A model generated the notes under the pieces. It made no database searches. It worked only from the letters and a program-made list of their open reading frames with translations, and was not told the DNA's origin. From a virus (taxonomy: Duplodnaviria; Heunggongvirae; Uroviricota; Caudoviricetes), in the IMG/VR virus record IMGVR_UViG_3300045988_024527, positions 1 through 64,000 of that record: a stretch of 64,000 bases of DNA; one strand, written 5' to 3'. This document shows, one piece after another, positions 602 through 3,136 of this stretch. The position numbers were made by a program, and so were the translations under genes. Positions within the stretch are counted from its first letter, which is position 1, and every line of letters starts with the position of its first letter.

Positions 602-684
602 ATGGGACGATGTTAAGACTCTAAGGCATGAGCAACGGCTTCCAACACCGTTTCAAAGGGGTTCAACTCCTCCGTCCCATGCCA
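602..684 (+). tRNA. tRNA-Trp (anticodon CCA), non-canonical long D-arm
   Basis: 7 bp acceptor atgggac/gtcccat, T-loop ttcaact 662-668, anticodon loop ttccaac with CCA at 642-644, encoded 3' CCA 682-684; 83 nt with about 7 extra nt in the D region. Confidence 0.5.
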
Positions 685-697
685 AAGTCTTATTAGG

Positions 698-785
698 GGT
701 AGGTAGCGGCTAATGGTAGCCAAACTGTCTTGAAAACAGTTGCCACTGTAGAGATACGGTGAGGGTTCGACTCCTTTACTTACCG
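698..785 (+). tRNA. tRNA-Ser (anticodon UGA), class II long variable arm
   Basis: Acceptor ggtaggt/acttacc, anticodon stem actgt/acagt with loop cttgaaa (TGA 731-733), long variable arm, T-loop ttcgact 766-772. Confidence 0.7.
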
Positions 786-1040
786 CCTAATAAGATTTAA
801 TTCCCGCGCTCGTCTAACAAGCTCGGTTTTTACTCGTGTATTGTCGTACACACTGACAAAGCACCTAGTAGGTGTCACGGAGAAGAGATAATATCAAGCT
901 CTCCAAAGGTTCTAGTCACCGGATTAAACAAGACTATGCAAAGACCTTTCTAGGTCTTTTTAGAGGGCTTCTAAGGTTATTACAGCTTGTTGTGGAACCT
1001 TGTTGCTTAGGTTCTTAGAAGTTCTCTAAAAAGGTTTAAT

Positions 1041-1118
1041 GGGAGATTGACGGTAATTGGTAAACCTATCTCGCTTAGAACGAGATGTTTGAGGGTTCGA
1101 ATCCCTTGTCTCCTACCA
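1041..1118 (+). tRNA. tRNA with anticodon UAG (Leu-type anticodon, short variable arm)
   Basis: Anticodon stem tctcg/cgaga with loop cttagaa (TAG 1076-1078), T-arm gaggg-ttcgaat-ccctt, acceptor gggagat/gtctcct with two G-U pairs, CCA 1116-1118. Confidence 0.5.
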
Positions 1119-1125
1119 AGTTAAT

Positions 1126-1201
1126 GCAGGTGTAGCAAAATGGTTATGCGGCTGACTCTTAATCAGTAAGACGATGGGTTCAATTCCCTCCACCTGTACC
1201 A
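1126..1201 (+). tRNA. tRNA-Lys (anticodon CUU)
   Basis: 76 nt; acceptor gcaggtg/cacctgt, anticodon loop ctcttaa (CTT 1158-1160), T-loop ttcaatt, CCA 1199-1201. Confidence 0.65.
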
Positions 1202-1206
1202 AAAAT

Positions 1207-1282
1207 GGGGTCATAGTTTATATGGTTAAAATTCGAGTTTTGCAAACTTGGGAACTGAGTTCAATTCTCAGTGACTCCACCA
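1207..1282 (+). tRNA. tRNA-Ala (anticodon UGC)
   Basis: 76 nt; acceptor ggggtca/tgactcc with G3-U70, anticodon stem cgagt/acttg with loop tttgcaa (TGC 1240-1242), T-arm ctgag-ttcaatt-ctcag, CCA 1280-1282. Confidence 0.8.
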
Positions 1283-1288
1283 ATTAGT

Positions 1289-1363
1289 GCATCCATAGTT
1301 TAAACGGGAAAATTACAGTCTTCCAAACTGAGGTTGAGGGTTCGATTCCCTCTGGATGCTCCA
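1289..1363 (+). tRNA. tRNA-Gly (anticodon UCC)
   Basis: Acceptor gcatcca/tggatgc, anticodon loop cttccaa (TCC 1322-1324), T-arm gaggg-ttcgatt-ccctc, CCA 1361-1363. Confidence 0.8.
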
Positions 1364-1370
1364 AATTAAT

Positions 1371-1447
1371 GCTGCTTTCGTATAATTGGCTATTACACAT
1401 CCCTTGTAAGGATGGAAATGCAGGTTCGAGTCCTGTGAGCAGCACCA
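1371..1447 (+). tRNA. tRNA-Thr (anticodon UGU)
   Basis: Acceptor gctgctt/gagcagc, anticodon stem catcc/ggatg with loop cttgtaa (TGT 1405-1407), T-loop ttcgagt, CCA 1445-1447. Confidence 0.8.
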
Positions 1448-1542
1448 ATTCAGAGGTCAAGTGAAAGACCGCTGGTGTCAACTGAAGACCGTAACAAATT
1501 CCACGGAGTTGAGTTAGCGGCACAACTTCAGACCTCTTTCAC

Positions 1543-1617
1543 ACTCGCTTAGTTTATATGGTAAAGCCCCATCCTTACAAGTTGGTGAAAAAGGTTCAAG
1601 TCCTTTAGTGAGTACCA
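1543..1617 (+). tRNA. tRNA-Val (anticodon UAC)
   Basis: Acceptor actcgct/agtgagt, anticodon loop cttacaa (TAC 1576-1578), T-arm aaagg-ttcaagt-ccttt, CCA 1615-1617. Confidence 0.7.
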
Positions 1618-1618
1618 T

Positions 1619-1696
1619 GTTCCAGTATCCCAATTGGCAGAGGATGCAAGCTCAAACCTTGTACTAGTGACGGTTCGAATCCGTCTTGGAACACCA
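1619..1696 (+). tRNA. tRNA with anticodon CAA (Leu-type anticodon, short variable arm)
   Basis: Acceptor gttccag/ttggaac, anticodon stem gcaag/cttgt with loop ctcaaac (CAA 1653-1655), T-arm gacgg-ttcgaat-ccgtc, CCA 1694-1696; 78 nt, variable region only about 6 nt. Confidence 0.55.
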
Positions 1697-1712
1697 ATTT
1701 TAGGAGAGCACT

Positions 1713-1820
1713 ATGAGTGATAAGTCCATCGCAAAAAAGTTTAGAGCGTCATATCTAAACAGACGTAAAAACAAAGTTTGTGAAAAACTGTATGGTGTTC
1801 TCGTAGGTAAGCAGGATTAG
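1713..1820 (+). CDS. hypothetical small protein (35 aa), MSDKSIAKKFRASYLNRRKNKVCEKLYGVLVGKQD
   Basis: ATG 1713 preceded by aggagag SD; stop TAG 1818-1820 lies inside the start of tRNA-Arg; below ORF-track size cutoff. Confidence 0.25.
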   Translation: MSDKSIAKKFRASYLNRRKNKVCEKLYGVLVGKQD

Positions 1821-1886
1821 TTCAAATGGATAGAGCAACAGTCTACGAAGCTGTTAATAGGGGTTCGAATCCCTTATCCTGCGCCA
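1811..1886 (+). tRNA. tRNA-Arg (anticodon ACG)
   Basis: 76 nt; perfect acceptor gcaggat/atcctgc, D-stem gttc/gagc, anticodon stem acagt/gctgt with loop ctacgaa (ACG 1845-1847), T-loop ttcgaat, CCA 1884-1886. Confidence 0.85.
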
Positions 1887-1904
1887 GATAAGCAAGAGGA
1901 ATTT

Positions 1905-2147
1905 ATGCAAACATTAATCGTCGTTGCACATGAAAACCCCAATAGTATTGAGTTTGTAAGGGTTCCCACTATAGATACCCACATTTTCTTGAAAGTCGGA
2001 TGGGAATGCGACCCAATAAAAGTAGGGAAATTTCTTGGTCATTACTTTGGTGGAAGACAATTTAAAAGTATCAATTTTGAGACAGTGTTACCAGAAAACT
2101 CAGAAACAGATAATAATACTTACCTCCTTACGAGGATTAGACAATGA
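1905..2147 (+). CDS. hypothetical protein (80 aa) embedded in tRNA array
   Basis: ORF track; abuts the next ORF; no recognisable motif. Confidence 0.35.
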   Translation: MQTLIVVAHENPNSIEFVRVPTIDTHIFLKVGWECDPIKVGKFLGHYFGGRQFKSINFETVLPENSETDNNTYLLTRIRQ

Positions 2148-2701
2148 GATACTTAAAATATGCTTCATGGATTTTCCTAGCTTTACTAGAACCATTTGCA
2201 GCAGCCCTAGCAGTCATCTTAGCACCTTTCGTAGTTCCATTCTACAGTGAGAAGAAAGGACATCTACCTTTTGGATTCAGATGGATGGAGACCTACGACA
2301 ACCCGATTGATGGTGATGAAGGTCACGTTAAAAGATGGGCTAAGATTAGAAAGATTGGTAAGCTGGGTGTCTACATGCAGAGAGTTGGATGGCTCTGGAG
2401 AAACAAAGCTTATAACTTCTCTTACCATGTATTAGGAAGAGATGTAAAAGATGTTACTAAGTGGAAAGGTAATATCAACGTAAGTTCTAACCCTGAAGAT
2501 AATCAGACTGGTTATCTCCTAATGTGGAACAGTAATGCTTGGGGATTATTCGCTTTTATCCCATCAATTAAAGTCTTTGGTAAACAGTTTTACTGGAGAA
2601 TTTATATTGGATGGAAACTAAAAAGTGTTGTCCCAGAAGAAAGAGCATTCTCAAGGGAAAGAGTTATGTTGGCATTCTTTATTCATCCACTGAGAAAGTA
2701 A
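2144..2701 (+). CDS. hypothetical membrane-anchored protein (185 aa)
   Basis: ORF track; hydrophobic N-terminus IFLALLEPFAAALAVILAPFVVPF, Trp-rich body; function not recognised. Confidence 0.5.
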   Translation: MRYLKYASWIFLALLEPFAAALAVILAPFVVPFYSEKKGHLPFGFRWMETYDNPIDGDEGHVKRWAKIRKIGKLGVYMQRVGWLWRNKAYNFSYHVLGRDVKDVTKWKGNINVSSNPEDNQTGYLLMWNSNAWGLFAFIPSIKVFGKQFYWRIYIGWKLKSVVPEERAFSRERVMLAFFIHPLRK

Positions 2702-2709
2702 AGATTTAA

Positions 2710-2785
2710 AGGGGATTAGTTTACAAGGTTAAAACCTCGGTCTTTGAAATCGAAGAAGTTGGTTCAATTCCAACATCCCCCGCCA
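2710..2785 (+). tRNA. tRNA-Gln (anticodon UUG)
   Basis: Anticodon stem tcggt/atcga with loop ctttgaa (TTG 2744-2746), T-arm gttgg-ttcaatt-ccaac, acceptor with A1-C72 mismatch, CCA 2783-2785. Confidence 0.7.
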
Positions 2786-2787
2786 AT

Positions 2788-2866
2788 GCTCCATTACTCC
2801 AATTGGCAGAGAGGCCAGACTTAAAATCTGTGTTATGTATCGGTTCGAATCCGATATGGAGTACCA
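2788..2866 (+). tRNA. tRNA with anticodon UAA (Leu-type anticodon, short variable arm)
   Basis: Acceptor gctccat/atggagt, anticodon loop cttaaaa (TAA 2822-2824), T-arm atcgg-ttcgaat-ccgat, CCA 2864-2866; 79 nt, variable region about 7 nt. Confidence 0.5.
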
Positions 2867-2871
2867 ATTTT

Positions 2872-2947
2872 AGCGGTATAGCATAACTGGCAATGCAACA
2901 GTCTCTGAAGCTGTCCTATTAAGGTTCAAATCCTTATGCCGCTGCCA
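2872..2947 (+). tRNA. tRNA-Gln (anticodon CUG)
   Basis: 76 nt; acceptor agcggta/tgccgct, perfect D-stem gcat/atgc, anticodon stem acagt/gctgt with loop ctctgaa (CTG 2905-2907), T-loop ttcaaat, CCA 2945-2947. Confidence 0.75.
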
Positions 2948-2978
2948 CTTCTAAGGGTTCTTACGAGAGTCCTTAAAT

Positions 2979-3054
2979 GTGGCCTTATCATAAATGGTAA
3001 TGACCCATGCTGTGAACATGGTCTATACGGGTTCAAATCCCGTAGGTCACCCCA
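2979..3054 (+). tRNA. tRNA-His (anticodon GUG)
   Basis: 76 nt; acceptor gtggcct/aggtcac, D-stem tcat/atga, perfect anticodon stem ccatg/catgg with loop ctgtgaa (GTG 3012-3014), T-arm acggg-ttcaaat-cccgt, CCA 3052-3054. Confidence 0.8.
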
Positions 3055-3059
3055 ATTTA

Positions 3060-3136
3060 TAGCCCAAGTAGCTTATATGGTTAAAGCGCGTGTCTGAAAA
3101 ACATGAGAAGAGGGTTCAAATCCCACTGGACTACCA
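3060..3136 (+). tRNA. tRNA-Phe (anticodon GAA), imperfect acceptor stem
   Basis: D-stem gctt/aagc, anticodon stem cgtgt/acatg with loop ctgaaaa (GAA 3096-3098), T-loop ttcaaat 3115-3121; best acceptor pairing tagccca/tggacta has one mismatch and irregular spacing. Confidence 0.45.

Follow-up and report, generated by a model that had tools for sequence, protein, structure and literature searches.

The tRNA cluster of a Felix O1-type phage was analysed in a stretch of 64,000 nucleotides (nt) of DNA (IMG/VR virus record IMGVR_UViG_3300045988_024527, positions 1 to 64,000), hereafter called the window. An 83-nt element on the forward strand at 602–684, with a CCA anticodon and an encoded 3′ CCA, is read here as a real and selectively maintained gene derived from tRNA-Trp, and probably as the phage's working, non-canonical tRNA-Trp(CCA). 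Judging from its sequence, its conservation and covariation, and a family model, we put the probability of this reading at about 0.6. The element, below called the Trp element, is new to annotation and appears in no public record examined. A second gene of the cluster, the tRNA-Phe(GAA) at 3061–3136 on the same strand, has an irregular acceptor stem. Both genes had been singled out from the letters alone (the original prediction) as tRNA candidates of non-canonical architecture that might be structural variants, pseudo-tRNAs or mis-folds.

The cluster and its missing canonical tRNA-Trp

The window contains the tRNA cluster of a Felixounavirus (Felix O1/EC6-like). Its segment 400–4200 is 98% identical to Escherichia phage EC6 and matched 294 phage records, mainly from phages of Escherichia, Salmonella, Shigella and Citrobacter in the subfamily Ounavirinae. 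Felix O1-like phages are classic tools of Salmonella typing and are employed today in biocontrol and therapy, and their sequenced genomes number in the hundreds. ARAGORN called 16 tRNAs between 698 and 4061, and Rfam likewise found 16. These neighbours are about 76 nt long, and an encoded 3′ CCA is typical of most of them.

When the whole clusters of FSL SP-012, Wc4 and P778 were inspected, canonical tRNAs were found for 19 amino acids, and Trp alone was absent. A canonical tRNA-Trp was likewise missing from the window and from Table 1 of the Felix O1 genome paper (PMC3185647). The Felix O1-like annotations examined and the genome papers give 22–26 tRNAs, none of them for Trp. In a literature search for Felixounavirus or Felix O1 together with a Trp tRNA, no paper mentioning such a gene was found, and the genome papers of Felix O1 (PMC3185647) and wV8 are silent on it.

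Structure and detection of the Trp element

The element opens with ATGGGAC (602–608), which pairs perfectly with GTCCCAT (674–680). The discriminator G681 and an encoded CCA (682–684) follow, so that the 7-base-pair (bp) acceptor stem, the discriminator and the 3′ CCA are arranged as in a canonical tRNA. The 5′ strand of the acceptor may be taken as 602–609 and its 3′ strand as 673–680, as G609 probably forms an eighth pair with C673. A connector of nine nucleotides, ATGTTAAGA (610–618), leads from the acceptor to the D stem; it is nearly invariant in the family and holds a 6-nt insertion, TTAAGA (613–618). The D arm (619–633) has a stem of 619–621 with 630–632, possibly extended by G617–C633, and a loop TAAGGCAT (622–629) with an invariant GG at 625–626. 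In the anticodon arm (634–652), a 5-bp stem (634–638/648–652) carries the CCA anticodon at 642–644, preceded by T641 and followed by A645. The five pairs enclose 9 nt (639–647); treating the conserved C639·A647 or C·C mismatch as a closing pair would leave a loop of 7 nt. The variable loop has 5 nt (653–657), and the T arm (658–672) consists of a 4-bp stem (658–661/669–672) and the loop TTCAACT (662–668).

The departure from a normal tRNA therefore lies on the 5′ side of the D stem, as the connector before this covarying stem measures 8–9 nt (609/610–618) against the canonical two (U8 and N9), and no U8 is present. In an alignment of the Trp element with Escherichia coli trpT and three phage tRNA-Trp genes, a 7-nt gap opened in the D region. 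The original prediction had described a perfect acceptor stem, a CCA anticodon and about 7 extra nucleotides in the D-arm region; all three are borne out by the pairing, the anticodon position, the alignment gap and the length of 83 nt against about 76 in the neighbours.

Standard tools pass over the element. At 602–684 there was no ARAGORN call at default settings and no Rfam match, either at the gathering threshold (29 bits for RF00005) or at E≤10. Relaxed ARAGORN runs (-ps or intron mode) gave nothing at this site or spurious calls (Pyl at -ps80; an intron-containing Pro on the opposite strand), and the mitochondrial mode (-mt) alone called Trp(cca), at 603–680. The minimum free energy (MFE) fold of the single sequence is already a cloverleaf, and the cloverleaf of the element lies no more than 2 kcal/mol from the MFE.

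The cause of this failure was located by deletion in silico. All blocks of 3–10 nt starting at 606–623 were removed in turn (144 deletions), and ARAGORN was re-run at default settings. A tRNA-Trp(cca) was called after seven of these deletions: six of 6 nt within 610–620 and one of 5 nt at 615–619. Since the 6-nt deletions restore the call, an insertion of about 6 nt, most simply TTAAGA at 613–618, is the only barrier to detection.

Conservation, covariation and synteny

A search of phage records with a 116-nt query found the Trp element in 234 records, at a coverage of at least 80% in 231 of them. None of the 60 records listed among the 234 annotates it; the features given at the site are "none", the adjacent tRNA-Ser, small hypothetical open reading frames or "promoter". 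The element occurs in Felixounavirus, in Mooglevirus (Michonne, ESh19), in Suspvirus (SUSP2, PC79-13) and in a distant clade of Yersinia and Pectobacterium phages (P778, Wc4, Arno162). In P778 the element itself can be aligned (77.6% identity over 76 nt) and its flanks cannot. The gene order tRNA-Arg(tct), Trp element, tRNA-Ser(tga) is kept in loci L006, L074 and L060.

When the cloverleaf was laid over 12 distinct homologues, 99.6% of cells were paired, and 8 of the 20 pairs showed compensatory double changes. None of 500 shuffles reached the observed covariation score, and controls with slid partners gave only 30–50% pairing. The double changes, the shuffles and the slid controls together reject a chance fold. 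RNAalifold, given no structure, returned the same cloverleaf, in a configuration with an 8-bp acceptor and a 4-bp T stem (8/4).

Compensatory changes occur in all four stems. In the acceptor, pairs 1:72 and 2:71 covary (A–U, G·U and G–C; U–A and C–G). The D stem is paired in all 18 distinct sequences compared, with 620:631 as T–A, A–T or G–C, 621:630 as C–G or T–A, and 619:632 as C–G or T·G; the divergent metagenomic copy L074 adds two further compensated pairs in this stem. Four of the five anticodon-stem pairs are doubly compensated, the stem reading AACGG/CCGTT, GTAAG/CTTAC, GTAGG/CCTAC or, in L074, ACTTG/CAAGT. In the T stem, 658:672 is G–C, or T–A in L024 and L044.

Against these changing stems stands a set of positions that does not change. 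The anticodon CCA, T33, A37, G73, the 3′ CCA, the GG of the D loop and the motif GGTTCRA are invariant in the 18 distinct sequences. The extra-loop segment GAYGTTAAGA shows a single substitution among them (T611C, in PC79-13), and this near-invariance suggests that the loop may serve a particular tertiary function or bind a partner.

A covariance model (R1) derived from the family's sequences gave a single match of 88–111 bits in every one of the eight Felix-like sources that were searched. R1 also fits ordinary tRNAs from end to end, at 15–40 bits, and its top matches outside the family include two canonical tRNA-Trp genes, one in L065 (40 bits) and one in the Erwinia phage phiEa21-4 (35.3 bits). 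Pattern scans of IMG/VR, metagenomes and 185,579 bacterial and archaeal genomes found the element in no group other than the same phage family and the divergent L074; none of the 185,579 genomes held a copy, and no canonical-length version carrying the 3′ half of the element was seen. Beyond these, the scans gave a handful of coding sequences matching by chance (W-D-D-V-K-T) and a pair of canonical tRNA-Trp genes that are unrelated.

A further tRNA-like element came up as a 19.8-bit match of R1. It is an unannotated 86-nt element in the gap after tRNA-Arg of phiEa21-4 (L081, 23959–24044). Its 7-bp acceptor is perfect (AGTGATT/AATCACT); it has a GGTTCGAATCC T arm, ends in CGCCA and lacks a CCA anticodon.

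Alternative pairings within the Trp element

The eighth acceptor pair, G609–C673, appears in both the RNAalifold and the MFE fold, which give an 8-bp acceptor and a 4-bp T stem. By this modelling the element probably has the 8/4 arrangement instead of the usual 7/5. Because G609, A657 and C673 are all invariant, covariation cannot choose between 8/4 and a 7/5 arrangement with an A657·C673 mismatch.

Other pairings of the D region fared less well. The alternative ATGTT/GGCAT (610–614/625–629) shows one-sided changes only, is mismatched in PC79-13 and L064, and folds at −15.3 against −22.1 kcal/mol; it was discarded as the principal fold. Pairing of T611 with A634 and of G612 with C633, around a 6-nt bulge, is always possible and has one C–G variant, but it costs about 14 kcal/mol and competes with the covarying pair 634:652; it is kept here as a possibility. 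TAAGAC (614–619), at the extra loop, is exactly complementary to GTCTTA (687–692) in the 3′ trailer just past the CCA, and this complementarity is kept in most Felixounavirus and Mooglevirus sequences. It is not kept in SUSP2, P778, Wc4, L057, L066, ESh19 or L074, and is therefore probably due to chance or specific to some lineages.

Identity and probable role of the Trp element

In enterobacteria, tryptophanyl-tRNA synthetase (TrpRS) recognizes its tRNA through the anticodon bases C34, C35 and A36, the discriminator G73 and the pair A1–U72. The CCA anticodon and G73 are present in all 18 distinct sequences of the Trp element; the first pair is A1–U72 in the window and G·U or G–C in other lineages. 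E. coli trpT, whose reference sequence was verified by 100% identity to the annotated tRNA-Trp in 5,426 genomes, shares A1–U72 and G73 with the window element, and the 3′ strand of its D stem with the next base (GAGCA) is identical. The features held in common with canonical tRNA-Trp(CCA) comprise the YUCCAAM loop, G73, the 7-bp acceptor, G18G19, the GGTTCRA T loop and the 5-nt variable loop. The differences from canonical tRNA-Trp, as found in E. coli trpT and phiEa21-4, are the 6–7 extra nucleotides between acceptor and D stem, the probable 8/4 arrangement and the lack of U8.

Phage phiEa21-4 (Erwinia; Kolesnikvirus) provides a direct comparison. It has an annotated canonical tRNA-Trp of 76 nt whose anticodon arm, CGGC-CTCCAAA-ACCG, is of the Felix type, including the C31·A39 mismatch. 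In 50 kb of this phage, R1 found no match at the level of the family (88–111 bits), and the canonical tRNA-Trp gave its sole strong match (35.3 bits). The invariant Trp identity, the synteny, the tRNA set for 19 amino acids and the anticodon arm of phiEa21-4 lead us to read the Felix-type element as the family's tRNA-Trp with a derived insertion.

If so, the element would be co-transcribed with the cluster tRNAs, RNase P would cut at A602, and the 3′ end would be trimmed to the encoded CCA. The host TrpRS may then charge it through the CCA anticodon, G73 and A1–U72. The charged element would read UGG and so complete a phage tRNA set for all 20 amino acids. Its own full set could be useful to the phage where host tRNAs are scarce or under attack, and E. 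coli has a single trpT (median one copy per genome in the 5,426 genomes). The molecule taking part in these steps would depart from the canonical form in three respects: an invariant extra loop of 6–7 nt (TTAAGA and a bulged A) between the acceptor and D stems, a probable 8/4 arrangement of acceptor and T stem, and an anticodon loop that a conserved C·A or C·C mismatch would close.

Several points weigh against the element being a working tRNA-Trp. It is rejected by Rfam RF00005, even at E≤10, and by default ARAGORN. The U8/N9 connector of the tRNA core is replaced by 8–9 nt, and the L-shape may therefore be disturbed. The T stem has just 4 pairs, one of them G·U, and the 8/4 assignment is made from invariant bases alone, without support from covariation. 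Stem mismatches occur in a few lineages (T·T in SP-012, G·G in L058, two acceptor mismatches in L074). That the extra loop hardly varies hints at a partner specific for its sequence, something that plain decoding does not require. The nearest published precedent, an extra-loop 8/4 tRNA, was uncharged in vitro by E. coli enzymes (PMC5389517).

Alternatively, the Trp element could be a tRNA mimic with no translational role, preserving tRNA shape and Trp identity in order to be bound by a host tRNA-targeting defence nuclease (as decoy or inhibitor), by TrpRS or by a phage protein. The extra loop would then be the handle, and no Trp would be delivered to ribosomes. That GAYGTTAAGA is conserved at least as well as the T loop while the stems drift fits this explanation, as does the loss of the canonical core connector. 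Irregular 8/4 tRNAs bearing an extra loop have been published; they were uncharged in vitro, and non-translational roles have been proposed for them (PMC5389517; PMC7609411); phage tRNAs that neutralise defence are cited in PMC12916289. However, the anticodon, U33, A37, G73 and the 3′ CCA are all invariant, and a decoy would have to keep the whole set only where its target reads every one. Moreover, the Trp element fills exactly the one gap in the set for 19 amino acids, the sister genus has a normal tRNA-Trp instead, and this analysis identified neither a partner protein nor a defence system specific to tRNA-Trp. A purely mimetic role is considered unlikely.

The loop may nevertheless be a functional module of a molecule that also decodes. 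The altered elbow and core of such a dual-purpose tRNA-Trp could let it evade or block a host tRNA-targeting defence nuclease while decoding UGG, or could serve as a handle for a phage-encoded factor; we regard this extension of the tRNA-Trp reading as tentative and somewhat doubtful. Finally, the element could be a decaying tRNA-Trp pseudogene, killed by the insertion and persisting through the close kinship of the phages, as its rejection by tRNA finders, the occasional stem mismatches in single lineages and the pseudo or OTHER labels of several cluster tRNAs in public records might suggest, but this is very improbable because pairing is compensated in all four stems (eight pairs doubly so across genera, and more in L074) and the identity elements, anticodon and discriminator included, never change, while the element is alignable in P778 where its flanks are not and is kept in 231 of the 234 matching records.

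Comparison with known non-canonical tRNAs

The Trp element, read as a tRNA-Trp with an extra loop, has its closest counterparts among the 8/4 tRNAs of Mukai et al. (2017; PMC5389517), who described phage and bacterial (8/4) tRNA-Ser and tRNA-His, allo-tRNAs, and an "(8/4) tRNA1 with an extra loop (E-loop)". The tRNA1 with the E-loop was not charged in vitro by those E. coli enzymes that were tried (PMC5389517), and a review places the extra loop of the E-loop species between the acceptor and D stems (PMC7609411). Like these tRNAs, the Trp element has an acceptor branch predicted to comprise 12 layers (8+4), an extra loop and a place in a polycistronic tRNA cluster, and is missed by standard finders. 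The 8/4 and 9/3 species of that study, however, either are Ser/Sec-like, their variable arm and D stem both being long, or are tRNA-His, and the E-loop species come from Acidobacteria-like soil metatranscriptomes and have identity elements that do not match. In contrast, the Trp element combines a 5-nt variable loop and a coherent Trp identity set with an enterobacterial host. The traits of allo-tRNAs (long variable arm, long D stem with a tetraloop, Ser identity) are absent from it, as its D stem has 3–4 bp and its D loop 8 nt.

In relatives, a protein of about 470 amino acids with DUF2828 and DUF7788 is encoded directly upstream of the tRNA cluster (L005, 1–1273; L006, 1–1023; L052, 1–1365); this position falls outside the window. 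The protein is labelled "RNA-binding protein" in P778, and a Pfam scan gave just DUF7788 and DUF2828. Because relatives encode this protein, the Trp element was also considered as a YrlA RNA (RF02553), a tRNA-mimicking ligand of Ro60/Rsr that is tRNA-like, as the Trp element is. The idea was rejected: there was no RF02553 match at 602–684 even at E≤10, and the only YrlA match, a weak one of 17.3 bits (gathering score 69), lay at 3000–3122. Unlike YrlA, the Trp element has a free acceptor end with GCCA and a full anticodon arm, and lacks a Ro-binding helix.

The tRNA-Phe gene

The tRNA-Phe(GAA) at 3061–3136, with its anticodon at 3096–3098, is bona fide and is the phage's ordinary tRNA-Phe. ARAGORN calls it at 3061–3136 (gaa), Rfam matches it at 3062–3132, and most public records annotate it as tRNA-Phe. 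Scoring against RF00005 had been proposed as a check on both candidates; tRNA-Phe reached 39.8 bits against the gathering score of 29, and the Trp element gave no match.

The D and anticodon arms of tRNA-Phe are regular. The rest of the molecule has neither an uninterrupted 7-bp acceptor nor a 5-bp T stem, as the 5′ acceptor strand has 8 nt and the 3′ strand 7 nt, and the T stem (3111–3114/3122–3125) consists of three G–C pairs and an A·A mismatch. Six distinct variants were compared, from Felixounavirus, Mooglevirus, Suspvirus, Kolesnikvirus and one metagenome. All six have eight nucleotides before U8 and just eight beyond the T-stem CCC. The model that pairs in all six has six covarying acceptor pairs (3061–3066/3127–3132 in the window), followed by a bulged A that never varies (A3067) and by a closing pair that the eighth nucleotide forms with position "65" (G3068–C3126), which is G–C in four variants and T–A in two. 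Position 50:64 is purine·purine in every variant. The other models tried were an ungapped acceptor of eight pairs, which holds in some lineages only, and a T stem with the pair G49–C65 (49:65), which fails in three of the six variants; the model with the bulged A is therefore preferred. ARAGORN can draw the molecule only with a 3-nt connector, an A·C pair and a T stem of four positions. The bulged-A acceptor with its four-layer T stem is an inherited, covarying trait of the family. Its nearest analogue is the "modified 8/4 with one bulge nucleotide" (PMC5389517), with the difference that the bulge of tRNA-Phe is in the 5′ strand of the acceptor and not at 51a in the T stem.

One irregularity was seen in the window alone. 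At 3063 it has C where close relatives have T, which produces a C3·A70 mismatch with A3130. This pair is T–A in the Felix O1 type and C–G in Michonne and L060. Among 251 phage records, every one of the best matches is a single base away from the window over 96 nt, and C3063·A3130 was found neither in the approximately 250 phage-database matches nor in the other loci compared. Either the substitution is private to the window or the base is a sequencing error. A real polymorphism, which would weaken or alter tRNA-Phe and might be an intermediate between T–A and C–G, is suggested by the presence of both end states in relatives and by the fact that the window combines the 5′ strand of L060 (AGCCCAAG) with the 3′ strand of Felix O1. 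However, the state is seen in the window only, and a difference of a single base is indistinguishable from a sequencing error; we consider the two explanations evenly balanced.

The original prediction had noted good D, anticodon and T arms, and an acceptor with a mismatch and irregular spacing. The D and anticodon arms are indeed good, but the T arm is not. The mismatch and the spacing were both found, and they proved to be two separate matters, the former seen only in the window and the latter family-wide. Comparison with orthologues, another check proposed at the outset, showed the irregular architectures of both genes to be conserved in phage relatives, and no software fold gave a canonical cloverleaf with other boundaries for either Trp or Phe. 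Real structural variants, conserved across genera with compensation, thus describe both genes; a mis-fold is contradicted by the RNAalifold recovery of the Trp cloverleaf, and pseudo-tRNAs are unlikely.

In the P778 clade, tRNA-Phe (L006, 4378–4454; L074, 2281–2357) has canonical spacing and adjacent U·U mismatches at 4:69 and 5:68 of the acceptor. Irregular acceptor stems thus recur in this phage group.

Other features of the cluster

Several other tRNAs of the cluster are labelled pseudo or OTHER in public records. The tRNA-His(GTG) at 2979–3054 (forward strand, as are all features below) is labelled pseudo, "tRNA-OTHER" or "Pseudo-GTG" in several of them. It has G1–C72, C73 and T2978 at position −1. 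Bacterial tRNA-His typically has G−1; with T2978 at this position, the typical G−1 is not encoded here. The tRNA-Ser(TGA) at 698–787, annotated as tRNA-OTHER in some records, is the weakest Rfam tRNA match (33.2 bits) and scored 39 bits against the tRNA-Sec model at a relaxed threshold, below the gathering score of 47. Its homologue in the Pectobacterium phage Wc4 (L050, 4613–4701) was missed by ARAGORN and by the annotation of the record.

Two gaps between tRNAs contain predicted hairpins. The 95-nt spacer between tRNA-Thr and tRNA-Val (1448–1542) folds into a stable long hairpin whose ends pair as AGAGGUC/GACCUCU (MFE −30.7 kcal/mol, z = −2.9, one of 200 shuffles as good). It is kept in Felixounavirus and Mooglevirus and not in P778 or L074, and no Rfam family matched it; phiEa21-4 cannot carry it because its Thr–Val gap is 7 nt. 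The 250-nt non-coding gap between tRNA-Ser and tRNA-Leu (788–1040) has a long hairpin at about 955–1035 and a z-score of −2.1 for the whole region. Its Rfam matches were only sub-threshold and microRNA-like, and Michonne has an HNH endonuclease gene in its place.

Upstream of the Trp element, the window opens with the C-terminal end of an N6/N4 DNA methylase (3–218; Pfam PF01555, 91.6 bits), followed by an HNH endonuclease remnant (282–464, ending in ...CVLLCSNCHKVRHAKY*) that is interrupted by an in-frame stop. Relatives have intact HNH genes or further tRNAs at the position upstream of the element. A sigma-70-like site at 570–598 (TTGAGA, a 17-nt spacer and AATTAT; 9 of 12 matches) ends 4 nt 5′ of the element, and the AYO145A record annotates a promoter there. 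The site is no evidence for a promoter, because sites of this kind are no more numerous in the region than shuffled sequence leads one to expect.

Significance

In sum, the Trp element, if it is the tRNA-Trp of the Felix O1-like phages, would shift the description of this family from one that covers 19 amino acids to one with a full tRNA set for all 20. It also indicates that a conserved phage tRNA can escape standard tRNA finders, and the tRNA-Phe shows that a bulge in an acceptor stem can be stable and inherited and need not be an error. As a natural extra-loop tRNA, probably 8/4, the Trp element would be easily testable in an E. coli/Salmonella system, where TrpRS, EF-Tu, RNase P, modification enzymes and ribosomes are at hand to test how far an altered tRNA core is tolerated. 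This may be relevant to phage tRNAs as a means of counter-defence and to the design of orthogonal tRNAs. If the element is charged and used by E. coli or Salmonella, it would represent a natural use of a tRNA with a non-canonical core in enterobacteria.

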